DNA from: Candidatus Omnitrophota bacterium
Lineage (GTDB): Bacteria > Omnitrophota > Gorgyraeia > Gygaellales > Profunditerraquicolaceae
Reading direction: 5' to 3'
Assembly (NCBI GenBank): GCA_026387335.1
Contig: JAPLLX010000001.1
Location: forward strand, 170,620-234,619
DNA length: 64,000 bases
Position numbers and translations under genes: made by a program. The notes beneath the pieces are model-generated. The model searched no databases, was not told where the DNA came from, and worked only from the letters and a program-made list of their open reading frames with translations. Each line of letters opens with the position of its first letter. Position 1 is the stretch's first letter. Shown here one piece after another: positions 3,024-56,794 of this stretch.

Positions 3024-4076
3024 ATGAATAAGAAGGTAATTCCAATTATTGTCTTTTTAATCTGTGTATATGCTTTATTTCTTAGGTTAGGTAATATTTC
3101 TAACTTTCCATTTTGGGCTGATGAAATATACGGATTAAACCAAATGAAAGGCTCCTTTATTAACTTAGTAATGTCAGCACCAAATAATGAAATCGGTTCT
3201 TATTTGTTAGGAGACCACTATTTAATATATCCGTTTTTTAAGGTTTTTGGTTACAACAGAGTTGGATTAGCGTTTCCGCATATTCTTGCAACTATTTTAG
3301 GGTTTTTTATCCTGTATCTTATATGCAGATTGTATTTTAAAACCATATGGGGATATTTAGTAGCTTTTATTATAGTTTGTTTTAATCAAACTCTAATCTA
3401 CCATTCCATAGAAATCAGGCCATATGCCGTAATTCCTACGTTGGCATTAGGGGTTTTTTATTTTACCCACATTTTATTAAAAGAAGGGGCACCGATAGCT
3501 GCTTATAAAAAATGGCTGATTGGAATTTTCTTCATTATTACAATATTATTCCATGTTTATGGCATATTGATTGTTTCTCTTCCAATATTGTTTTTATTAT
3601 TTTCAAATGCAAAAATGAATAATTTTATTATAATTGCCCGGAAGTTATTTTGTTTTTTATTTATTATATTTTGCATAACTCTTCCTGTATGGTGTATTAG
3701 TGTTTTTGGCAAACATTGGATCCATCCAGAACTTCCAGTTTTTGAATATATACCAGATCCACTTTTAAACGTAGTGGGTTTCCTAAAAGGTATCTTTGGA
3801 AATTTAATAGGGAGTAAAGGATTATATTTTCTTTTAGCAGGAGTTTTATTCCCCTTTATTTTTTCTTTCCCGGAAAGGACAAAACAGATTAAGTTTTTAT
3901 TAATAATGGTAATTTTACCTATAGGGCTTATTCTTTCACAGGACATAAGAGAAAAATATTGGTTTTTGCAACGTCAGTTTATTTGGGTTATGCCTTATTT
4001 TGCTTTTTTCTTGGGCTGGGTGTGGGATTCTATGGCGCAGTTATTTATAAAAAATTTACCAACAAGAAGGGGGTAA
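3024..4076 (+). CDS. polytopic membrane protein, GT-C-like (ArnT/PMT-type) glycosyltransferase candidate
   Basis: Many hydrophobic helices. ATG 3024 is preceded by GGGGAGGGG. The extracytoplasmic-loop motif WADEIYG resembles GT-C proteins. Confidence 0.55.
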   Translation: MNKKVIPIIVFLICVYALFLRLGNISNFPFWADEIYGLNQMKGSFINLVMSAPNNEIGSYLLGDHYLIYPFFKVFGYNRVGLAFPHILATILGFFILYLICRLYFKTIWGYLVAFIIVCFNQTLIYHSIEIRPYAVIPTLALGVFYFTHILLKEGAPIAAYKKWLIGIFFIITILFHVYGILIVSLPILFLLFSNAKMNNFIIIARKLFCFLFIIFCITLPVWCISVFGKHWIHPELPVFEYIPDPLLNVVGFLKGIFGNLIGSKGLYFLLAGVLFPFIFSFPERTKQIKFLLIMVILPIGLILSQDIREKYWFLQRQFIWVMPYFAFFLGWVWDSMAQLFIKNLPTRRG

Positions 4077-46305: not shown

Positions 46306-48546
46306 ATGGCGCTTCTATCTACTATTTTTATTATCGGTTTAAGCGGCTTAATCGCTCAGATTATTATCCTGCGCGAGCTTCTGGTCAATTTTTCCGGTAA
46401 TGAGTTAACCGTAGGCATTATTCTGGCTAACTGGGTTATTCTGGAAGCCGCCGGTGTTTTTTTCCTCGGAAAAGCTATAGAGAGGATTAAGAATAAATTA
46501 AGCGTTTTTATAGCTTTAAATATACTCTTCGCGTTGATCCTGCCGTTTACTATTTACTTTGCGCGCACGTTTAAGGCGTTTACAGGCCTACCTTTTATAG
46601 AAGCGGTTTCTTTACCCGTTATATTCTTCTCTTCGTTGGCGATAATCTTTCCAGCGGCATTTTTACATGGCGCGCTCTTTAGCTGCGCTTGTAAGGAACA
46701 TTCCTTAATAACCAACAACTCTGAACGCTCAATAAGGATGGTTTATGCCTGGGAGGCCCTTGGGACAATATTCGGCGGGATAATTCTGGTATTTTTACTC
46801 ATACCGCGCCTGACTTCATTTCAAATAGTGCTTATTATTTCCTTCCTAAATATTATTTTGTCCATTTTTCTTACCCGGGCTAAGAAAAGATATTTTTATC
46901 TGTGCGTTATTACGTTTTTATGCGTTTTATTTTCCGCTAAAGCCGCGGGTTATTTGCAAAGAGCCTCAATTGATAAACAATGGCAGGGCCAGTTTATCCT
47001 GGATTATCGGAATTCTAATTACGCTAATATTACCGTAACCAAAAAACTTAACCAGTACACCTTTTTCTATAACGGAGTGCCGGCGATTACTACTCCTTTC
47101 CCGGATAAGCAATTTGTCAGCGACTTCGCCAACTTACCGTTATTATTTCATGACTCGCCGCAGGATATCCTGATTGTAGGTTCCGGTATCGGAGGCTTAA
47201 TCGCAGAGTCCCTGAAACACCCCCTCAAAAGCCTGGATTATGTTGAAATTGACCCCTTGATTATCAAGTTACTTAAAGAATACCCTACGTCTTTAAGCGA
47301 AGCTGAGCTCGCTGACAGCAGAGTAAATATTATTAATACCGACCCCCGGCTGTTCTTAATGACCAGCAAAAAATCTTACGATGTGATTTTGATAGGGCTA
47401 TCGGCTCAAGCGGATTTATCCAGTAACCGGTTTTTTACGGAAGAGTTTTTTAAGAGGGCTAAGATGAGACTAAATCCCAAAGGTATAATCGCTTTGTGGA
47501 TGCCAGGTTCATTGACCTACCTGAGCAGTGAGTTAAAAGATCTGAATAACTGCGTATGGAATAGTTTAAGGCTTTCTTTTAAATATACGCGCGTCATTCC
47601 TGGAGATTACAACATATTTATCGCTTCTGAGGCAGACGGGATAATGCTGGTTAATCCTACTTTATTATCCGAGAGGCTAATGAAGCGCGGTGTCGCGCAG
47701 GGGATACTCATTCCGGATTATCTTCAAGAGCGCTTAAGCCAGAGGTGGCTGGATTGGTTTAATCAGGAACTTAGGTTAGCCACAAAGGAGAGTAATCAGG
47801 ACCTGCGGCCCGCGGCAGTATATGCAACCTTAAAGATTATAAATAAGAAGTTCTCTCCCGGATTTAGCCGGGTATTTAGTTATCTTGGCTATGTTAATTT
47901 AAAATTATTATTCCTTATAATTTTTCTGATGAGCTTAGGGGTAATGGTTGTCTCTAAAATTAAACGTGATCCAAAAATCCCGGTTGCCTACGCGATTTTT
48001 ACAACCGGATTTTTCGGAATGCTGGCTAACCTGCTTTTATTATTTGCTTACCAGGTTTCTTACGGGTGCTTGTATCAGATGATAAGTATATTAACCGCGG
48101 TATTTATCTTTGGAGCCGCAATAGGGGTTATTTTACTTTCTCCGGCGTTTAGCCGGCTAAAGAAACCGGGATCAATTTTAATTATAATGGAAGCCTTAAT
48201 AATTAGTTTTATATTTATACTGGGGTCAGTTATTACCAGAGGCAACGTTATTTTAAACAATTCAGCTGCAATTTTCTATTGCCTATTGTTTATTGCGGGC
48301 TTACTTATGGGCCTGGAATTTCCTTTAGCCGCCAAGATATACCTAAAAGATAATAGGGATAACGCAGGCGCTGTTTCAGGGTTGCTTTATGCCAGCGATC
48401 TTATTGGCGGGTGGTTAGCCGGAATATTCGGGGGAGTCGTATTTTTGCCCGTGTTAGGCTTTTTTAATACCTGCCTGCTTATGGTTATGTTGAAGCTGAG
48501 CAGCCTTCTTGTGTTAATAAATAGGGACAGCGACCGTTTTTTCTAA
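46306..48546 (+). CDS. membrane protein fused to a spermidine-synthase-like (aminopropyl/methyltransferase-fold) domain
   Basis: N-terminal and C-terminal TM bundles flank a SpeE-like domain (ILIVGSGIGGL ... VEIDPLIIKL). Confidence 0.65.
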   Translation: MALLSTIFIIGLSGLIAQIIILRELLVNFSGNELTVGIILANWVILEAAGVFFLGKAIERIKNKLSVFIALNILFALILPFTIYFARTFKAFTGLPFIEAVSLPVIFFSSLAIIFPAAFLHGALFSCACKEHSLITNNSERSIRMVYAWEALGTIFGGIILVFLLIPRLTSFQIVLIISFLNIILSIFLTRAKKRYFYLCVITFLCVLFSAKAAGYLQRASIDKQWQGQFILDYRNSNYANITVTKKLNQYTFFYNGVPAITTPFPDKQFVSDFANLPLLFHDSPQDILIVGSGIGGLIAESLKHPLKSLDYVEIDPLIIKLLKEYPTSLSEAELADSRVNIINTDPRLFLMTSKKSYDVILIGLSAQADLSSNRFFTEEFFKRAKMRLNPKGIIALWMPGSLTYLSSELKDLNNCVWNSLRLSFKYTRVIPGDYNIFIASEADGIMLVNPTLLSERLMKRGVAQGILIPDYLQERLSQRWLDWFNQELRLATKESNQDLRPAAVYATLKIINKKFSPGFSRVFSYLGYVNLKLLFLIIFLMSLGVMVVSKIKRDPKIPVAYAIFTTGFFGMLANLLLLFAYQVSYGCLYQMISILTAVFIFGAAIGVILLSPAFSRLKKPGSILIIMEALIISFIFILGSVITRGNVILNNSAAIFYCLLFIAGLLMGLEFPLAAKIYLKDNRDNAGAVSGLLYASDLIGGWLAGIFGGVVFLPVLGFFNTCLLMVMLKLSSLLVLINRDSDRFF

Positions 48547-48624: not shown

Positions 48625-49233
48625 GTGACTGATTTAGATTTCGTCCAGAAATGCGTCAAAGGGGACAGCCAATCCTGGGATGAATTCTTAAAACGTTATT
48701 CCCGCCTGATATATAAGTATATCCACAGCGTATTAAACTCTAAGAACATTCTTGCCTCTAACCCTGACCATATAGACGATATATTTCAGGGTTTTTTCTC
48801 TTCTTTGATCCAAGACGACTATAAAAAACTAAAAAGCTTTAGAGGTATAAATGGCTGTAGCCTGGCCAGCTGGTTAAGGCTGCTTACTATAAATTTCACC
48901 CTGGATTATCTGCGTAGGGTTAAACCGGCATTTTCTCTGGAAGCTGAGAATGACGAAGGTTTTAGCCTTAAGGATACACTAGCTGATGGTTCAATTTCCG
49001 TGCCTGAGCTGCTTGCCCAGGAAGAAATGTTAAAGAGCCTGGAGGATTGCCTGGACGGTTTAAGCCTGCAAAGCAGGTTTCTTATAGAGTTAAATATTAA
49101 TCAAGGCGTAAAGCTGGAGGCCTTAAAAGATTTATTTAAACTTTCCCGCGGGGCCATAGATATGCAGAAGAAGAGGATTATTGATAAACTAAGAGAGTGT
49201 TTTAGGAGTAAAGGTTTTAAGTTAGATTTTTAA
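48625..49233 (+). CDS. ECF-type RNA polymerase sigma factor (sigma-70 family)
   Basis: Region 2 and region 4 architecture, 202 aa. GTG start lies 8 nt downstream of TGGTATAAT (extended -10 at 48609-48617). Confidence 0.7.
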   Translation: MTDLDFVQKCVKGDSQSWDEFLKRYSRLIYKYIHSVLNSKNILASNPDHIDDIFQGFFSSLIQDDYKKLKSFRGINGCSLASWLRLLTINFTLDYLRRVKPAFSLEAENDEGFSLKDTLADGSISVPELLAQEEMLKSLEDCLDGLSLQSRFLIELNINQGVKLEALKDLFKLSRGAIDMQKKRIIDKLRECFRSKGFKLDF

Positions 49234-49272
49234 GGCGCTTGCGTCTATTATACTAAGGAGGGGACTATCAAT

Positions 49273-49977
49273 ATGCCGGATAAGTTAGAGGTTTTAATTA
49301 AAAAAGTTTACAACAGATGGAAGAGGCGCTCTAGGGTTAACGATGCTCATCCTGATGAAGAGGCCATGGCTTGTTTTTTTGATGGTTGCTTAAGCTATGA
49401 AGAAAGCGAGCGGATAAAAGCCCATTTAGCTGCTTGTGATGATTGCGCTCATCTTTTTGCTCTTAGCTTAAACGCTGAAAGTTCCGCTGAATTAAAAGAG
49501 GTGCCTGAAGAGCTGCTAAACAGGGTGCTGGAGTTATTGAAATCAAATGATAAGCCGTCGATCCTGGATATTGTTTTACGGCTCAAAGAGAATATGCTTG
49601 AGATAATCAATGCCAGCGGAGATATTCTTTTAGGCCAGGAGTTAATTCCCGTACCGCTATTACGCAGCCGTAAAATCCGGGATTTTAAGGAGGAAGTCAC
49701 TATATTCAAGGATTTTAAGAATATTCGATTAGAGGTGCGGATAGAAAATAAGGATGGAAAATTCTTTAACTTAATGACCAGGGCTATTTTTAAGCCTGGC
49801 GCGCTACCCTTTAAAGGCTTAAGGGTTACTCTCTTTAAGGATGGTTTGGAATTAGAATCCTACCTTAGCGATTCGGGTTCGGTTAATTTTGAGCATGTTG
49901 CCTTGGGTAAATATGAGTTAGAGCTGAGCAACGATAGCGGTAAGTTCGCTTCAGTGGTTTTAGATATTAAGGCCTAA
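49273..49977 (+). CDS. soluble zinc-binding (ZAS-type, HxxxCxxC) anti-sigma factor candidate
   Basis: HLAACDDC motif. No TM segment. RBS AAGGAGG. Confidence 0.55.
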   Translation: MPDKLEVLIKKVYNRWKRRSRVNDAHPDEEAMACFFDGCLSYEESERIKAHLAACDDCAHLFALSLNAESSAELKEVPEELLNRVLELLKSNDKPSILDIVLRLKENMLEIINASGDILLGQELIPVPLLRSRKIRDFKEEVTIFKDFKNIRLEVRIENKDGKFFNLMTRAIFKPGALPFKGLRVTLFKDGLELESYLSDSGSVNFEHVALGKYELELSNDSGKFASVVLDIKA

Positions 49978-49985
49978 ATAAAAGA

Positions 49986-52205
49986 ATGCCAGAAGAAAAG
50001 ACCCTTATTTTGGAGATTAGCCGCCAGGTTGACCTGCTGAAGATGAGCCTTTTTGAGGCCAACGACTCTCCGGCAACCCTAAAGCAATATAGCCAGCACA
50101 AAGTCGATCTTAGCCAGATTGATCGGCTCTGCGCCGAGGTCACTTCAGTATTAAATAAGGTTGTCTTACAGGATAGCGCTTTAATTAGAAGCTTACAGAA
50201 AACAGGACAGGCCCTCTGGGATCATCTTTTAAGCCGTTCGGTTAAAGAGAGGTTAAAATCATCCCTCTCTGCCAACTTAGCGCTGACCATTGATGAAGAG
50301 CTGATTAATATTCCCTGGGAACTGCTTTATGATGGAGATAATTTTCTCTGCCTGAAATTTAACTTAGGAAGGCTGGTTAGGACGAAAAGCCAGGCTAGCC
50401 GGGTGCAATACCGCTCGGCTACGCATATTTTTAAGATGTTAATTTTGGCCAATCCGACCAATGATTTAAAATGCGCTTATCAGGAAGGCCTAAGCATTAA
50501 AAACCAGTTTGACCGTAAGCGTTCAAACATACACGTTGATTTTAAATCCACAAATATAGATAAGTTATACCTAAAGAAGAACCTTTGCGACTATGACATT
50601 ATACATTTTGCCGGGCATGGCGAGTATGACCAGTATAACCAGAAAAATAGCGGATGGGTCTTAAGCGACGGGAAATTTAATATACAGGATATTTTAAGCA
50701 TGGGGCAGGCTGTTTCTTTGCCGGCGTTGGTTTTTTCTAATGCCTGTAATTCGGCGCAAGGTAACGCCAGCGGTATAATTGAGGCGGATTATCAGAAGAG
50801 ATATTATTCCTTTGCTTCGGCCTTCCTTTTTTCAGGAGTCAGGCATTACATCGGCTCAATACGCAAGATTGATGATTTCGCCAGCCTGGCTTTCGCCAAA
50901 GAATTTTATCACCATTTAATCTTCGGGAAATCTGTCGGTGAAAGTTTGCGTTTAAGCAGGATCAAGTTAGTCCGGGATTATGGGCTCATCTCTTTACATT
51001 GGGCGAATTACCTGCTTTATGGAGACCCGGCTTTTTTTCTCTTTAAGCCCAAAGACAAAGCGTTTAAGAGCAGGGATAAAATAAGGGTAAGGCTAAACCG
51101 GAAATGGCTGGCCGGGTTTTTAATTTTAGCCGCCGGCATAGGGTTAGGTCTATGTCTCTTTATGTTTTTACCTACGCTTAATCCAAATGCCTACCGTTTA
51201 TTCTTGAAGTCCAGGGATTTATTTAGCAAAGGCGATAACCAGCAAGTTATCCAGCTGGCTGACCGGATTATTAAGAAAGACCCGGACTTCCGGGATATTT
51301 ACCGGTTGCTTGGCGATACTTACCTTAGGCTGGGGAATAAGGAGAGGGCCTTAAAATATTATTTTGACTACGCGCTTTTAGCGGAGAAGAAGCGGGATTT
51401 TAAGTGTTTAGCCGCAGGCTATATTGAAATTGGCTGGCTTTACCAACTGCAAGGTGAATACCTTAAGGCAGCTGATTTTTATAATAAGGCCCTGGAATTG
51501 GCGCGCAAGAACAATGATAAATTAAATGAAGCCGTAGCCATGCGTAAGCTGGCTGTATGGCATATAGATAAGGATGAAAACGATTTGGCCTTAAGTCTTT
51601 TAACCAAAAGCGCCGAGATTAACCGCGAAAGGCAGTATTCTTATGAGCATCGCTATAACCTGGCTTGCGATTATTTTGATATCGGATTGGTTTTTTCCAA
51701 TAAGGAGGATTTTAAAGCCGCGGATGAGTTTTACCGCAAAAGCCGGGTGATTTTTGAGAGACTTAAAATTAAGAATGGTTTAAGCGATTATTATTTTAAT
51801 CTTGGGGAATTGTGTTTATTTGAAAAACAGTATCAAAAGGCCAAAGATTATTACTTAGCCGGGCTAAGGATAGATTTGAGCCAGGGGAATAAATTGAACC
51901 TGCCTTCGGATTATAACATGATCGGCGAGCTGTATCTTGAGATGGATATGCTACTGGAAGCTAAACTTGCCTTGGAAGAGTCGCTAAATGCCGCAAAAGA
52001 GATCCAGGCGCAGCCGGAAGTGGCCGCGGCGTATCATAATTTAGGTTTGTTGTATAAGAAACTGGGAAAAAAGAATAAGGCCAAGGAATTCTTGCGGCTG
52101 GCGCAGGAAATTTACAGTATTATTGACCCCTTGGCTTATAAAGAGGTAAAAAATGAGATTTTAGGCCTGGATGGGGCAAACCTGCCGGACTTGACAAAGC
52201 CTTAA
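49986..52205 (+). CDS. CHAT-domain (caspase-like) protease fused via one TM helix to C-terminal TPR repeats
   Basis: His in HFAGHGEYD and Cys in FSNACNSAQG form the catalytic dyad. TM helix FLILAAGIGLGLCLFMFL. Several TPR repeats follow. Confidence 0.75.
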   Translation: MPEEKTLILEISRQVDLLKMSLFEANDSPATLKQYSQHKVDLSQIDRLCAEVTSVLNKVVLQDSALIRSLQKTGQALWDHLLSRSVKERLKSSLSANLALTIDEELINIPWELLYDGDNFLCLKFNLGRLVRTKSQASRVQYRSATHIFKMLILANPTNDLKCAYQEGLSIKNQFDRKRSNIHVDFKSTNIDKLYLKKNLCDYDIIHFAGHGEYDQYNQKNSGWVLSDGKFNIQDILSMGQAVSLPALVFSNACNSAQGNASGIIEADYQKRYYSFASAFLFSGVRHYIGSIRKIDDFASLAFAKEFYHHLIFGKSVGESLRLSRIKLVRDYGLISLHWANYLLYGDPAFFLFKPKDKAFKSRDKIRVRLNRKWLAGFLILAAGIGLGLCLFMFLPTLNPNAYRLFLKSRDLFSKGDNQQVIQLADRIIKKDPDFRDIYRLLGDTYLRLGNKERALKYYFDYALLAEKKRDFKCLAAGYIEIGWLYQLQGEYLKAADFYNKALELARKNNDKLNEAVAMRKLAVWHIDKDENDLALSLLTKSAEINRERQYSYEHRYNLACDYFDIGLVFSNKEDFKAADEFYRKSRVIFERLKIKNGLSDYYFNLGELCLFEKQYQKAKDYYLAGLRIDLSQGNKLNLPSDYNMIGELYLEMDMLLEAKLALEESLNAAKEIQAQPEVAAAYHNLGLLYKKLGKKNKAKEFLRLAQEIYSIIDPLAYKEVKNEILGLDGANLPDLTKP

Positions 52206-52220
52206 AAAATATGTTATACT
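52191..52220 (+). promoter_or_regulatory. sigma-70-like promoter TTGACA-18-TATACT upstream of the riboswitch
   Basis: Read directly. The -35 lies within the last codons of the CHAT gene. Confidence 0.45.
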
Positions 52221-52257
52221 TTTTTAGTTGATATTTGACAATTTAAACCTGACCTAA

Positions 52258-52345
52258 TGAAAAGGCTAACCAGCAGCAATGCTGGGGCGCAAAACTTCCG
52301 GACCCGCCAAAGGCGGGCTAGCGGGGTTGCCAAAAGGAGCTAACC
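52258..52345 (+). ncRNA. c-di-GMP-I (GEMM) riboswitch aptamer candidate
   Basis: GGCUAACC, a 4-bp hairpin with a GCAA tetraloop, GGGGCGCAAAAC, the P3 hairpin CCCGCC-AAAG-GCGGG, and CUAGCGGGGUUGCC. This closely parallels the Vc2 pattern GGCAAACC-[GNRA hairpin]-GGGACGCAAAGCC ... GGUAGCGGGGUUACC. Confidence 0.6.
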
Positions 52346-52372
52346 CTAAAATTAATCCTTTTAGGGTTTTTT
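52342..52372 (+). terminator. intrinsic terminator (riboswitch expression platform)
   Basis: AACCCTAAAA-ttaatcc-TTTTAGGGTT followed by TTTTTG. It overlaps the 3' strand of the aptamer. Confidence 0.6.
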
Positions 52373-52445
52373 GTTGCAGAGGGCAACACACCGAACCATC
52401 CGATAGGTTTGGGTGACCCTGGAGGAGGGCGCAAAGGAGGCTAAG

Positions 52446-52553
52446 ATGAGGCGAATGCATAGAAAGTTAATGCGCAAACCAGCAAGAAGGCACCATAAGA
52501 GGCAGCCAAGCTTTATCCAGGCTATAAGGCTATATTTAGGCATGCCAGCGTAA
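52446..52553 (+). CDS. 35-aa highly basic small protein (MRRMHRKLMRKPARRHHKRQPSFIQAIRLYLGMPA)
   Basis: Consensus SD AAAGGAGG sits 5 nt upstream of the ATG. The ORF lies in the GC-rich island downstream of the riboswitch and is not in the ORF track because it is under 60 aa. Confidence 0.4.
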   Translation: MRRMHRKLMRKPARRHHKRQPSFIQAIRLYLGMPA

Positions 52554-52556
52554 AAT

Positions 52557-52609
52557 AAATAGGGACAGCGACCGTTTTTCTATGGGAAAAACGGTCGCTG
52601 TCCCTATTT
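52557..52609. repeat. hairpin repeat element copy C (same 23-bp arms, 7-nt loop)
   Basis: Read directly. It lies immediately after the small ORF stop. Confidence 0.8.
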
Positions 52610-52618
52610 AAAGTGGCC

Positions 52619-52646
52619 TTGAAAATCAGGGCTGATGTGTTATACT
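52619..52646 (+). promoter_or_regulatory. sigma-70-like promoter TTGAAA-16-TATACT
   Basis: Read directly. The predicted TSS is at the GGCAAGGGG stem. Confidence 0.45.
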
Positions 52647-52733
52647 TAGTTTAGGCAAGGGGTAAACTACCAGCGGGCAGGCAATGCCCGGTAAAAAACA
52701 AAGAAAAATAGAATTCCCCTTGCCAGTTTTATT

Positions 52734-52769
52734 TTCCCCGTATTGAAAAAATGCGGGGATTTTTTTTAA
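52734..52769 (+). terminator. strong intrinsic terminator/attenuator in the leader of the BNR-repeat gene
   Basis: CCCCG-tattgaaaaaatg-CGGGG followed by T8. Confidence 0.6.
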
Positions 52770-52816
52770 GTTAGATTTCTCTACCTCCCGCGTCTATTGA
52801 AGCAGGAGGTGGTAAA

Positions 52817-54367
52817 ATGAAAAAAGTTATAGTAGTTTTAGCAGCGCTGGTTTTGGTGAGCGGGAAGGCCTGGTCGTCAGAGCCTGAGTGGCAGGAGGTA
52901 AGCAGGGGCATAGTTAACGTAAGAAGCGTTTTAGTCAGTCCGGATAACCCTAAAGTAATTTATGCCGGAGCGGATAAAGGGGTATTTAGAACTGAAGACG
53001 CGGGTAATACTTGGCGGAATATCCTTTCAGTCCGCGGGGATAGCCGCGCGGTTAATTATCTGATTTTTGATGCCCAGAATAAAAATGCCCTCTACGCGGC
53101 AACCGGAAACGGTCTCTATTTTAGCGAAAACGCTGGCCAAAGATGGAACAGGATTTTTAAAGGTAAGAATTCATTTGAAAATGAGTGCGTATTCGTAACC
53201 ATAATACCTCAAGGCATGTATCTGGGGACAAAATCCGGTTTGTTCGTTAGTAAAGATAGGGGCCGCTCCTGGTATAAGGAAGCAGGAAAATTAGGGGCAA
53301 GCAGAATATTTAATATTAGCGTTGTTTATAAGGAGCCGGAGCAGCTTTATGTTTCCTGCAGTGATGGGGTATTTAAAACCGTTGATAGCGGGATGACCTG
53401 GGAAAGAATTTTTATCGCGCATCCGGTAGAAAACGGCTTAGAGCAGGAAGAAGAAACTGAAGACCGCGATGAAGATGAACGGCATTCTGAGATAAGGTAT
53501 GTAGCCATAGATCCGCAAAGTCCGGATAATCTATACTTGGCGACCAGCCGCGGAGTATACAAGAGTAAAAACAGGGGCGCGGGTTGGGAATTATTATCCG
53601 AATACGGATTACTCAGCCGCGACACCCAATTTTTATTATTTTCGGATAAATCATCCGGGTTCTATGCAATGAGTAAGTCAGGAGTTTTTATGTATAAGGA
53701 TGACGCCTGGAGAGAACTTTCTTTTAACCTTGCTTCCGGTAGCATTAATTTCTTACTATTGGATAAAGATATGAATTTATACGCCTGTAGCGATAAGGGA
53801 TTATTTAAGACTAGTTTAAGCTATACAAGTTCGTTTGAGGTTCCGGATATAATTTCGGGGTATTCCAACGGAGAGCCCGGGATTGAAGAGGTGCAAAAAC
53901 AGGCAATTAAATACGCTGAGGTAGAGCCCAGTAAAATAATTAATTGGAGGAAGCAGGCGCAGAAAAAAGCTATATTTCCCAAGGTAAGTATGGGTCTGGA
54001 AAGAAATACCGGCGACCTCTGGCACTGGGAGGGCGGTTCAACCACTAAAGATTGCGATGATACTTTAAGGCGCGGACGGGATACGCTGGATTGGGATGTT
54101 ACTTTAAGCTGGGATTTAAGCGAGTTGGTCTGGAATAGCGACCAGACCTCTATTGATACGCGCTCACGGCTGATGGTGCAGCTAAGGGACGACATACTTG
54201 ACGAAGTGAATAAAACATATTTTGAGCGTATTCGGGTTAAGATGGAGATGGATAGTTTACAGATTGAGGATAGAAAGAAGCGCTTTGAAAAAGAATTACG
54301 GGTCAGGGAGTTGACCGCTTCGCTGGACGCCCTTACCGGCGGCTATTTCTCAAGCCATACGCGCTAA
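52817..54367 (+). CDS. secreted BNR/Asp-box repeat beta-propeller protein (Ycf48/sialidase-like repeats)
   Basis: Signal peptide MKKVIVVLAALVLVSGKAWS. At least 5 repeats of S/T-x-D-x-G-x-T/S-W. RBS AGGAGGTG. Confidence 0.7.
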   Translation: MKKVIVVLAALVLVSGKAWSSEPEWQEVSRGIVNVRSVLVSPDNPKVIYAGADKGVFRTEDAGNTWRNILSVRGDSRAVNYLIFDAQNKNALYAATGNGLYFSENAGQRWNRIFKGKNSFENECVFVTIIPQGMYLGTKSGLFVSKDRGRSWYKEAGKLGASRIFNISVVYKEPEQLYVSCSDGVFKTVDSGMTWERIFIAHPVENGLEQEEETEDRDEDERHSEIRYVAIDPQSPDNLYLATSRGVYKSKNRGAGWELLSEYGLLSRDTQFLLFSDKSSGFYAMSKSGVFMYKDDAWRELSFNLASGSINFLLLDKDMNLYACSDKGLFKTSLSYTSSFEVPDIISGYSNGEPGIEEVQKQAIKYAEVEPSKIINWRKQAQKKAIFPKVSMGLERNTGDLWHWEGGSTTKDCDDTLRRGRDTLDWDVTLSWDLSELVWNSDQTSIDTRSRLMVQLRDDILDEVNKTYFERIRVKMEMDSLQIEDRKKRFEKELRVRELTASLDALTGGYFSSHTR

Positions 54368-54449
54368 AACTCCTTGCAATTCCTACCTAGTTATGATAAT
54401 TTAATTAAGCTTTCCGCATTAATAATCTTTTAACTTGAGGATAAAAGAT

Positions 54450-54773
54450 ATGAGTATTCTGCATTTTAGCGATGGCAACTTTAAGAAAGAAGTCTTGGAA
54501 TCCAAGGTCCCGGTTATGGTTGATTTTTGGGCGAATTGGTGCGGGCCCTGCAAAATGATCGCTCCGCTAGTTGAAGAGTTAGCCAAGGAATACGCCGGCA
54601 AAATGAAAATCGGCAAGCTGGATGTTGACACTAACCCTAAAAGCGCTGCAGCCTACGGTATTATGTCAATTCCTAGCCTGATATTTATTAAGAACGGCAA
54701 GGTCATGGACCAGGTTACTGGTGCCCTGAATAAGGCGGCCTTAAAGAAAAAAATAGAAGAAAACCTAGAATGA
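54450..54773 (+). CDS. trxA: thioredoxin
   Basis: WANWCGPCKMIAP. RBS GAGGA sits 8 nt upstream. Confidence 0.9.
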   Translation: MSILHFSDGNFKKEVLESKVPVMVDFWANWCGPCKMIAPLVEELAKEYAGKMKIGKLDVDTNPKSAAAYGIMSIPSLIFIKNGKVMDQVTGALNKAALKKKIEENLE

Positions 54774-55858
54774 AGAAAATATTCATCGCTGCTACCAAGC
54801 AGAATGATGGTAAGACCACGGTTTCATTAGGCTTAATCCGCAATTTCCAGAATATCTTTAAAAAAGTATGTTTCATTAAGCCGATCGGCCAGCGTTACCT
54901 GGAAGAAGAAGGCCTGAAAATTGACGAAGATTCTGTCCTGATCGAGGAAGTCTGCGGCATAAAGTGCGGGCTAAAAGATATGAGCCCGATTGCCGTAGAA
55001 AAAGGATTTACAGAGAGGTATATCGCCTCTCCCAATAAAGAATCCATTAGCCGGCAGATTAAAGATTCGTTTCGCCGGGTTTCTAAAGGACAGAATTTAG
55101 TTATTGTTGAAGGGACGGGCCACGCCGGAGTAGGTTCGGTTTTTGACCATTCTAACGCTACAGTCGCGAAATTGCTGGGTTCAAAAGCAATATTGATCTC
55201 TTCCGGAGGAGTAGGCCGGCCGATTGATGAGATTATTCTGAATAAAGCGCTCTTTGAACGGGAAGGCGTTAAGCTCTTAGGTGTAATCATTAATAAGGTC
55301 CTTCCGGATAAATTTAACAAAATCAATGATCTGGTCAGGAGGGGATTAAAGAGGAAAGGCGTAGATGTTTTAGGGGTAATTCCTTATAACCCTATGCTTT
55401 CACGCCCGACCATTGAGCAGATCCTGGAAGAAACAGGTTTTGAGATTTTGTGCGGTAAGGAATATTTGGAGTCATACGTTTCTCAGGTCATTGTCGGGGC
55501 AATGGAGCCGCGCGACGCAGTAAAATATATCGTTGAAGATAGCCTGGTGATTACGCCCGGAGATCGGGAAGATATGATTATGACTGTTTTAAGCTGTTTT
55601 CGAGAGAAAAACGCTAAAAGGCTTAAGGCTAGCGGTATAGTTTTATCCGGAGGGATAACACCGGAACAGCCGATAATGAATTTATTATATAAAGCCCAGA
55701 TTCCGATTTTACTGGCTAAGTCCGATACCTATGATGTGGCAACTTCTATTCATGATTTAACCGTAAAGATCCGGCCGCGGGATAAGGAAAAAATTAACGC
55801 GGTAGTGAAATTGATTAAGGATAACGTAGACTTAAATAAAATATTGAAAGGGATGTAA
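54770..55858 (+). CDS. phosphotransacetylase N-terminal-domain-like protein (P-loop/DRTGG domains) encoded separately
   Basis: N-terminal MKKIFIAATKQNDGKTTVSLGL (CobQ/Pta N-terminal P-loop-like). ATGA overlap with trxA. Confidence 0.6.
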   Translation: MKKIFIAATKQNDGKTTVSLGLIRNFQNIFKKVCFIKPIGQRYLEEEGLKIDEDSVLIEEVCGIKCGLKDMSPIAVEKGFTERYIASPNKESISRQIKDSFRRVSKGQNLVIVEGTGHAGVGSVFDHSNATVAKLLGSKAILISSGGVGRPIDEIILNKALFEREGVKLLGVIINKVLPDKFNKINDLVRRGLKRKGVDVLGVIPYNPMLSRPTIEQILEETGFEILCGKEYLESYVSQVIVGAMEPRDAVKYIVEDSLVITPGDREDMIMTVLSCFREKNAKRLKASGIVLSGGITPEQPIMNLLYKAQIPILLAKSDTYDVATSIHDLTVKIRPRDKEKINAVVKLIKDNVDLNKILKGM

Positions 55859-55861
55859 AAG

Positions 55862-56794
55862 ATGAACGCAATTGAACAGATCCGCCAGAGGGCAAGAAAA
55901 AAGATAAAATCCATCGTGCTTCCGGAATATAATGATCCGCGCGTAATTGAGGCAGCGCGTATTATTCAGGGAGAGGGTTTGGCTAAGGTTACGCTTTTTA
56001 CCAAGGAGATGGTGGATAATCAAGAGAGAGAGCGCTATATTCAGGAATATTATGAAACATATAAGGCAAAAGATATTGATATTTCGCAGGTGAGAAAACT
56101 TTTTGAAGCGGATACGCTTTATTATACCGCGATGATGACTACAGAGGGTAAGTTTGACGGATTGGTTGCTGGAGCCGCGCACACAACTCCGGATATGGTC
56201 AGGGCTTCTATGCGCTGTATCGGGATAGACGAGCGTATCACCATAATTTCCAGTTGTTTTATTATGGATGTCCCGAATTGCCCTTATGGGGAATCCGGGA
56301 CTTTTGTATTCGCGGATTGCGGCGTAATACCGGATCCAAATTCGCGACAATTATCCCGTATCGCCCTTTCGGCCGCGGAATTAGCCGGAAAGGTTTTGGA
56401 GATTACCCCGCGTATAGCTTTTTTAAGTTATTCCACTAAAGGCTCAGCCAGAGCTAAATCCGCTGAGAAAATTGCCGAGGCGCTCTCTATGCTTAAAGAG
56501 CTGGCTCCCGGAATGCTGGCGGATGGAGAGATGCAGGTGGATGCGGCGATTGTCCCGGACGTAGCCAAAATAAAATATCCGGATAGCCCGCTAGGTGGAA
56601 AAGCGAATGTTTTAATATTTCCTAATTTAGAGGCAGGCAATATTGGCTATAAATTAACCCAGCGGCTCTCTGGAGCCAGGGCATTAGGGCCGTTGCTTCT
56701 GGGCCTAAATAAGCCGGCTAGCGATTTATCGCGCGGATGCTTAGTTGAAGACGTTGTGGATTGCGTAGCGGTAACAGCAATAAGGGCGCAATAA
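55862..56794 (+). CDS. pta: phosphate acetyltransferase (catalytic PTA_PTB domain)
   Basis: IVLPEYNDPRVIEAARII ... SRGCLVEDVV. Confidence 0.85.
   Translation: MNAIEQIRQRARKKIKSIVLPEYNDPRVIEAARIIQGEGLAKVTLFTKEMVDNQERERYIQEYYETYKAKDIDISQVRKLFEADTLYYTAMMTTEGKFDGLVAGAAHTTPDMVRASMRCIGIDERITIISSCFIMDVPNCPYGESGTFVFADCGVIPDPNSRQLSRIALSAAELAGKVLEITPRIAFLSYSTKGSARAKSAEKIAEALSMLKELAPGMLADGEMQVDAAIVPDVAKIKYPDSPLGGKANVLIFPNLEAGNIGYKLTQRLSGARALGPLLLGLNKPASDLSRGCLVEDVVDCVAVTAIRAQ

Follow-up and report, generated by a model that had tools for sequence, protein, structure and literature searches.

A predicted c-di-GMP-I riboswitch with a terminator platform upstream of an orphan small basic protein in Omnitrophota

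We analyzed a 64-kb stretch of DNA from a Candidatus Omnitrophota metagenome-assembled genome (the whole stretch is called the window, and its coordinates are used throughout), focusing on the gap between a CHAT/TPR gene and the gene of a secreted BNR-like beta-propeller protein. This gap holds a predicted riboswitch of class I for cyclic di-GMP (c-di-GMP-I, or GEMM-I) and, downstream of it, a small open reading frame (ORF) that the riboswitch probably controls. Omnitrophota is an uncultured phylum of very small cells. The genes flanking the gap (48625-54773) follow an order that recurs across the phylum, in a further ~60 loci, i.e., an ECF sigma factor, a zf-HC2 anti-sigma factor, the CHAT/TPR protein, the BNR/Ycf48-like propeller and a thioredoxin; the ECF/CHAT signaling module that an earlier note on this DNA had seen upstream is real. 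The riboswitch cassette fills the CHAT-BNR gap in only a subset of genomes. Where the window was aligned with four relatives (retrieved loci carry L numbers), all five shared one intergenic layout: a promoter, the aptamer, a terminator, a Shine-Dalgarno sequence with the small ORF, an optional hairpin, a second promoter, a second leader with its own terminator, and the BNR gene (Table 1).

Table 1. Features of the CHAT-BNR gap and of the BNR-like gene that follows it.
Feature	Position	Strand	Basis or detail
Sigma-70-type promoter TTGACA-18-TATACT, TG-extended -10	52191-52220	+	11/12 consensus positions (consensus scan)
P1 5' strand CCUAAUG; first half of the predicted antiterminator	52253-52259	+	
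c-di-GMP-I (GEMM-I) aptamer	52254-52334	+	RF01051 match and covariation among homologues
P1a	G52265-C52266 with G52289-C52290	+	RF01051 alignment
P1b, GCAA loop	52270-52275 / 52280-52285	+	RF01051 alignment
P2	52293-52308 / 52312-52328	+	RF01051 alignment
P1 3' strand CAAAAGG	52331-52337	+	
Intrinsic terminator: AACCCUAAAA / UUAAUCC loop / UUUUAGGGUU, then UUUUUUG	52342-52375	+	10-bp stem at 52342-52368
Shine-Dalgarno AAAGGAGG	52433-52440	+	5 nt upstream of the small-ORF ATG
Small ORF, 35 aa, MRRMHRKLMRKPARRHHKRQPSFIQAIRLYLGMPA	52446-52553	+	
Perfect 20-bp hairpin after the small ORF	52561-52605		+ strand U-tail weak (AUUUAAAG)
Second promoter TTGAAA-16-TATACT with TG, for the BNR-like gene	52619-52646	+	10/12 consensus; conserved in aligned relatives
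Second leader, directly upstream of the BNR-like gene	52654-52767	+	
Second-leader outer stem, 9 bp: GGCAAGGGG / CCCCUUGCC	52654-52662 / 52716-52724	+	
Second-leader invariant core AAACUACCAGC-GGGCA-GGCAA-UGCCC-GG	hairpin 52675-52689	+	
Second-leader A-rich tract, then terminator and U-run	terminator 52735-52759	+	
Secreted BNR/Sortilin-Vps10/Ycf48-like beta-propeller protein, 516 aa, signal peptide	52817-54367	+	

The first promoter, already read by the earlier note, was confirmed at its position, which includes the CHAT/TPR stop codon (52203-52205), and it is kept in all four aligned relatives (L002, L004, L006 and, partly, L003). Transcription of the riboswitch leader probably starts at ~52227-52229, and a consensus scan of the + strand between 52221 and 52618 found no further promoter-like site. 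The GC-rich island that the note had described across 52191-52375 applies to the aptamer core (58% GC) but not to that span as a whole, which has 40.5% GC compared with 39.8% for the window. Within the transcribed leader, between promoter and aptamer, a TTGACAATTT motif (52236-52247), which was not called as a promoter, is kept in 5/5 aligned loci, in two of them as TTGATAAT.

Scanning the window with the models of Rfam 15 yielded a single match above its gathering score, namely RF01051 (c-di-GMP-I), which covers the entire model (1-87 of 87) on the + strand at 64.7 bits, compared with a gathering score of 35 (E 2.3e-10). This match is far beyond chance, and it bears out the call of a c-di-GMP-I (GEMM) riboswitch made from the letters alone. 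When positions 50000-56000 were scanned by E-value, the only matches besides the aptamer were junk (miRNA, snoRNA and sRNA families at E 0.02-0.2). The individual aptamer motifs that had been listed, i.e., GGCUAACC, the AGCA-GCAA-UGCU hairpin, GGGGCGCAAAAC, CCCGCC-AAAG-GCGGG and CUAGCGGGGUUGCC, were all found, in that order.

The aligned RNA also carries the equivalents of bases with known roles in the Vc2 aptamer. In Vc2, the ligand is contacted by G20, A47 and C92 (PMC4744006; PMC5888326), and an inter-helix Watson-Crick pair, C44-G83, is stated to be universally conserved in this class (PMC4744006). By the RF01051 alignment, the three contact residues correspond to G52264, A52291 and C52330, and the inter-helix pair to C52288 (the third base of a GGC junction) with G52321 (in the AG that precedes the 3' strand of P2). 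The closing helix P1 is weak, its two strands forming five Watson-Crick pairs around two A-A mismatches. Judged by family membership, 52254-52334 is a class-I c-di-GMP aptamer, and it is predicted to bind c-di-GMP.

Homologues were collected in two ways. Eighty genomic loci were retrieved through the BNR-like protein, and a covariance model built from seven aptamers found aptamers in 24 of these BNR-anchored loci. To avoid the bias of anchoring on BNR, metagenome contigs were also scanned for the aptamer core, giving a second set of 63 loci. Homologous aptamers thus occur in dozens of Omnitrophota contigs. Among 27 Omnitrophota matches, in an alignment that was itself fitted to the model, 95.3% of the cells were paired and 14 of 21 pairs had changed on both sides; none of 500 shuffles reached the observed level, and slid controls were 24-46% paired. 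The 5' strand of P1 is conserved as CCUANUG in most of 39 distinct loci.

Several of these homologous loci have peculiarities of their own. In L004 (1101-1251), L006 (3401-3553) and L010 (2614-2790), the aptamer carries an insertion of ~70-90 nt containing predicted hairpins, and the insertion site is identical in these different lineages, at the junction between the 3' strand of P1b (GGGGC) and GCAAA. On the opposite strand, canonical c-di-GMP-I aptamers with a GAAA loop and its receptor were observed in L014 (3818-3910, -), L073 (3795-3896, -) and L042 (5651-5743, -), the first two of which occupy the same CHAT-BNR gap. The one in L014 has its own promoter and terminator and is directed, in antisense orientation, into the CHAT gene's 3' end, possibly an antisense-acting arrangement.

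The first ORF after the aptamer encodes a small protein whose N-terminal part is strongly basic (rich in Arg, Lys and His) and whose C-terminal part carries a conserved motif, F-[IL]-x-x-[IL]-R-L-Y-L-G-M-P-A. By tblastn, it was found in 19 BNR-anchored loci, and in 19/19 an aptamer lies on the same strand 18-198 nt upstream of the called ATG; a GGAGG-type Shine-Dalgarno sequence precedes the ORF in nearly all homologous loci. In the aptamer-anchored set, 55 of the 63 loci extend at least 350 nt downstream, and in 29 of these 55 the small ORF is the first downstream ORF that matches the motif. Among 20 distinct versions of 34 codons, pairwise differences at codon positions 1, 2 and 3 numbered 1426, 1184 and 3233, respectively (372, 174 and 1246 over the C-terminal 14 codons), and the relatives are separated from the window by an in-frame indel of 3 nt. 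Because substitutions fall mainly on third codon positions, we conclude from the sequence comparison that the small ORF codes for a protein.

The family itself is an orphan. Its members (34-40-aa basic proteins, found in the window and in L002-L011, L024, L048-L077 and L082-L141) fall into two subtypes, MRRMHRK...FIQAIRLYLGMPA and MKRILHKALA...FLKALRLFEGMPLFGIRR. Searches of Pfam and NCBIfam gave no match, a word-index search of 5.8 billion proteins gave only two unnamed matches, and only three weak ones came from a full HMMER scan against 1.84 billion representatives. The PDB search returned only eL39 (E 2.1) and PHROGs only a match at E 0.5, so that neither pointed to an assignable family. 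By its substitution pattern, the family is under purifying selection, and it is almost never annotated. This near absence from protein databases would also fit a different explanation, in which the aptamer and terminator form a stand-alone short RNA or a non-coding leader control, and the 'small ORF' is an untranslated part of a long BNR 5' untranslated region; in line with such an arrangement, no hairpin separates the small ORF from the BNR leader in L004 and L006. We consider this extremely unlikely, given the strong third-position bias, overall and in the C-terminal half, the in-frame indel, the conservation of the start, the stop and the GGAGG Shine-Dalgarno sequence across lineages in which BNR identity is only 45-70%, and the separate conserved promoter that precedes the BNR leader. 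That the coding small ORF is the gene directly controlled by the riboswitch, as the earlier note had proposed for its small basic peptide, is strongly supported by the position of the aptamer directly upstream of it.

Between aptamer and small ORF lies an intrinsic terminator, and the aptamer thus occupies a cis-regulatory position with an expression platform: promoter, aptamer, terminator, then Shine-Dalgarno sequence and ORF, with a conserved alternative pairing between aptamer and terminator. The terminator stem (ACCCUAAA..UUUAGGGU) and U-run are nearly identical across lineages with BNR proteins of only 45-70% identity. Across 39 distinct loci, the stem sequence and the CC that ends the loop are kept in 38-39, the CC in 38. 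In the window, CCUUUUAGG (52357-52365), which comprises this loop-end CC and the 3' arm, is complementary to two aptamer segments, CCUA (52253-52256, in the P1 5' strand) and AAAGG (52261-52265, including the G20 equivalent). All distinct loci (39/39) showed complementarity between the aptamer 5' segment and this part of the terminator, with a mean duplex energy of -8.8 kcal/mol compared with -4.0 kcal/mol for shuffled sequences; for the window alone the value was -7.3 kcal/mol, equaled by 6 of 200 shuffles. In minimum free energy (MFE) structures, the 3' strand of P1 (AAAAGGA, 52332-52338) can alternatively pair with terminator bases UCCUUUU (52356-52362); relatives of the L062 type have a further pairing, between this strand (GUAGGG there) and the terminator 5' arm. 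A plain terminator needs no such conservation; we attribute the fixed stem and loop to their complementarity to aptamer strands.

These pairings suggest the following mechanism. Without ligand, the aptamer 5' segment (CCUA and AAAGG) would base-pair with the terminator at its loop end and 3' arm or, alternatively, the P1 3' strand AAAAGGA would pair with the same terminator bases; either way the terminator would be blocked, and RNA polymerase would read on into the small ORF. With c-di-GMP bound, P1 and the junction would be locked in the aptamer, the terminator hairpin would form, and transcription would stop at ~52370-52375, so that high c-di-GMP would turn the 35-aa basic protein (52446-52553) OFF. 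We predict the OFF direction from pairing and folding, since every strand that competes with the terminator is one that the aptamer would retain once ligand is bound. Taken together, our reading is that the locus carries a functional c-di-GMP-I riboswitch, transcribed from the promoter at 52191-52220 and acting through a terminator platform in OFF control of the 35-aa protein, and we put its probability at roughly 0.7.

Several observations weigh against this reading. The RNA lacks the 11-nt tetraloop receptor that the Rfam consensus has, the corresponding model positions being deleted, although the GNRA loop itself is present (GCAA), and the conserved junction is GGC where the consensus has GAC. 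In E-value mode, a different model of the Rfam clan, RF03168 (c-di-GMP-I-UAU), gives the best match of the window, with a score of 60.3 bits that falls short of that model's gathering score (65.9). When the window sequence was folded at equilibrium without constraints, the terminator was predicted with P = 1.00 (for the segment from P1 onward), and it is also present in the centroid structure. Finally, a simple regular-expression motif search, which is weak evidence, found no GGDEF, EAL or HD-GYP motif in the 64-kb window; the same type of search found no PilZ motif there. With regard to the receptor, c-di-GMP-I members with a GYRA loop commonly lack the 11-nt element, and its absence does not exclude membership.

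The junction, the missing receptor and the clan competition could together indicate that the aptamer senses another ligand, e.g., 3',3'-cyclic GMP-AMP (cGAMP) or another dinucleotide, as a specificity variant of GEMM-I, all the more as several close Omnitrophota homologues are labeled RF03167 (c-di-GMP-I-GGC) by clan competition. The meaning of the GGC and UAU names was deduced from the Rfam consensus lines; the main text of the 2017 NAR (Nucleic Acids Research) paper does not describe these variants. By those lines, RF03168 has U at the G20 and C92 positions, and RF03167 reads GCGAA, with G at A47, where the parent family reads GCAAA. The window and its homologues read GCAAA and have G, A and C at positions 20, 47 and 92, and the window accordingly falls outside both RF03167 (G at A47 and at least 59 bits) and RF03168 (U at 20 and 92 and at least 65.9 bits, compared with the 60.3 bits scored). 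cGAMP-selective GEMM-Ib RNAs have A at position 20. The window has G52264 there, which places it outside GEMM-Ib as well. With the defining substitutions absent, another ligand appears very unlikely, and because G, A and C occupy the diagnostic positions in the window and its homologues alike, the variant labels are, on this sequence evidence, artefacts that arise when models this similar compete by E-value.

The folding results bear on the direction of the switch, which the earlier note had not decided. The earlier note had the terminator directly after the aptamer, which stands (a 10-bp stem and U-run are present), and had its 5' arm overlap the aptamer 3' strand, which does not: the arm (52342-52351) begins 5 nt past the end of the P1 3' strand (52337). 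Since the terminator thus lies wholly outside the aptamer, the folded aptamer cannot sequester either terminator arm, and when the aptamer and P1 were enforced in folding, the terminator still formed. Both points speak against an ON switch, in which c-di-GMP binding to this same aptamer would promote read-through into the small ORF, as does the fact that the sequences competing with the terminator are aptamer strands that the ligand would withdraw. Both directions are known for c-di-GMP-I riboswitches, and the terminator that the window adopts by default at equilibrium is what an ON switch would need; all in all, we regard an ON switch as unlikely. For OFF control, the same default means that ligand-free read-through would have to be kinetic, i.e., co-transcriptional. 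For the 149-nt leader (52228-52376), the fold with the terminator and the fold with the antiterminator have the same energy, -44.6 kcal/mol; for L062-type relatives, the ensemble computed without constraints favors the antiterminator, with P(terminator) of 0.04-0.26.

Two other pairings were considered as competitors of the terminator and not retained. An antiterminator formed by GGGGUU (in the P2 3' strand) and AACCCU (in the terminator 5' arm) was demoted, its enforced fold being 5 kcal/mol worse than the alternatives and requiring, in addition, that the stable P2 helix be opened. A long-range pairing of AAACCU (52245-52250) with AGGGUU occurs in the MFE structure and was rejected, as its 5' partner is not conserved in relatives.

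Aptamer-anchored loci in which the small ORF does not come first begin with other genes, including that of a conserved protein of ~80-93 aa (RVVTFLNREEVDFLDKIGKDALFSTG...) without a Pfam match. Other first genes encode secreted small proteins, TPS-domain exoproteins/adhesins, a giant TIG/fn3 surface protein and a response regulator, and in L117 the BNR protein itself comes directly after the aptamer. Surface and adhesion genes are typical targets of c-di-GMP, and their presence here fits the assignment of the ligand. The basic small ORF follows the 80-93-aa gene in L085, L091 and L105. More generally, the ~80-93-aa protein (..RVVTFLNREEVDFLDKIGKDALFSTG.K.SR..), whose N-terminus looks ribbon-helix-helix-like by eye, is encoded first downstream of an aptamer of the same subtype, or behind the small ORF, in many loci (L085, L086, L088, L091, L096, L098, L105, L108, L109, L126, L135, L140 and L143, and L062 at 3245-3466).

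Downstream of the small ORF, the cassette continues toward the BNR-like gene. The perfect hairpin at 52561-52605 is possibly a partial terminator or an insulator; at its site, L002 and L003 carry hairpins of unrelated sequence, and none is present in L004 or L006. In a consensus scan, the window hairpin qualified as a terminator on the minus strand alone, and no gene lies there that it could terminate. The second promoter is followed by the second leader, which was found only in a close Omnitrophota clade and which matched no Rfam family at E<=1. Its terminator stem covaries between loci. Across 11 sequences, however, the leader showed 0 compensatory pairs because its core is invariant, and its structure is thus neither supported nor refuted by covariation. 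The possibility that it is a degenerate copy of the aptamer was rejected, as the Omnitrophota aptamer model, run with filters off over 52380-52830, gave only a fragment of 2.8 bits over the leader. We regard the second leader as a candidate cis-regulatory RNA or protein-binding site that is outside the riboswitch and in the same conserved cassette.

A Candidatus Omnitrophica metagenome-assembled genome encodes a protein with 100% identity to the BNR-like protein. Relatives of the BNR-like protein number more than 1200 and come almost entirely from Omnitrophota, and its gene is syntenic with the riboswitch cassette across the phylum. The earlier note had raised possible riboswitch control of this gene as well. 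The synteny is there, and it is the only link; direct control in the window is unlikely, because the hairpin, the second promoter and the terminator-bearing second leader all lie between the small ORF and BNR. In more distant genomes, the aptamer, the small ORF, two small genes and BNR stand in this order with short gaps, which, together with the locus where the aptamer directly precedes BNR, suggests that the functional association is old.

A further possibility is that the small-protein family acts in trans as a c-di-GMP effector, e.g., that the Arg-rich peptide binds the second-leader hairpin and thereby controls the BNR terminator. This hairpin, a 5-bp stem with a GNRA-like pentaloop (GGGCA-GGCAA-UGCCC), resembles phage boxB, and it is this shape and its co-location with an arginine-rich peptide that bring boxB/N-like antitermination to mind; co-location is the whole of the support. 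In L074, the second leader is present and no small ORF lies within 3.7 kb upstream. We consider such a role a long shot. If true, it would constitute a two-tier cascade, from riboswitch to peptide to antitermination.

Other elements were observed in the wider surroundings. Thiamine pyrophosphate (TPP) riboswitches lie ~1 kb upstream of the c-di-GMP aptamer in L050 (1710-1823), L066 (1699-1811) and L077 (1769-1884), and L012 contains a group II intron (106-278 and 1784-1857). In the window, an ORF of 746 aa (46306-48546) has a spermidine/spermine synthase domain and, in its C-terminal part, matches the major facilitator (MFS) family weakly, below threshold.

As an RNA, the riboswitch is an ordinary member of a well-known class, which routine Rfam annotation finds, and it adds nothing new to RNA biology itself. 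Its distribution suggests that c-di-GMP signaling through riboswitches is widespread in Omnitrophota, also upstream of adhesin-like genes. The most frequent first gene after this aptamer subtype is an unannotated, strongly conserved basic protein of 34-40 aa, which offers a testable entry point to small-protein function. The platform illustrates clearly how the sequence of a terminator stem can be fixed across a phylum, having to mirror the strands of its aptamer. What is new here is the corrected logic of the platform with a predicted OFF direction, the identification of the probable regulated gene as that of a 35-aa basic protein, the phylum-wide context, and the conserved second leader next door.

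Compared with Vc2 and the RF01051 consensus, the Omnitrophota aptamer shares the two-helix architecture (the P1a/P1b hairpin and the P2 hairpin), the GNRA tetraloop of P1b, the equivalents of the contact bases, and a location in a 5' leader with an intrinsic terminator next to it. It differs in having a GCAA or GUAA loop, no 11-nt GAAA tetraloop receptor in P2, a GGC junction and a weak P1, and in its setting, as the host belongs to the uncultured Omnitrophota and the gene predicted to be regulated is a 35-aa orphan rather than a pilus, flagellar or chitin-binding gene. With RF03167 and RF03168 it shares the clan and the fold, and it has neither the A47-to-G change of the GGC variant nor the G20-to-U and C92-to-U changes of the UAU variant. 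The Bc1 c-di-GMP-I riboswitch of the Bacillus cereus group, which has a long platform with terminators (PMC11218506), likewise has a termination platform downstream of a class-I aptamer, and some Omnitrophota relatives, e.g., L002, resemble it further in carrying two successive terminator-like hairpins. The platform sequences are unrelated, and the Omnitrophota terminator stem is set apart by its phylum-wide conservation, mirroring the strands of the aptamer.

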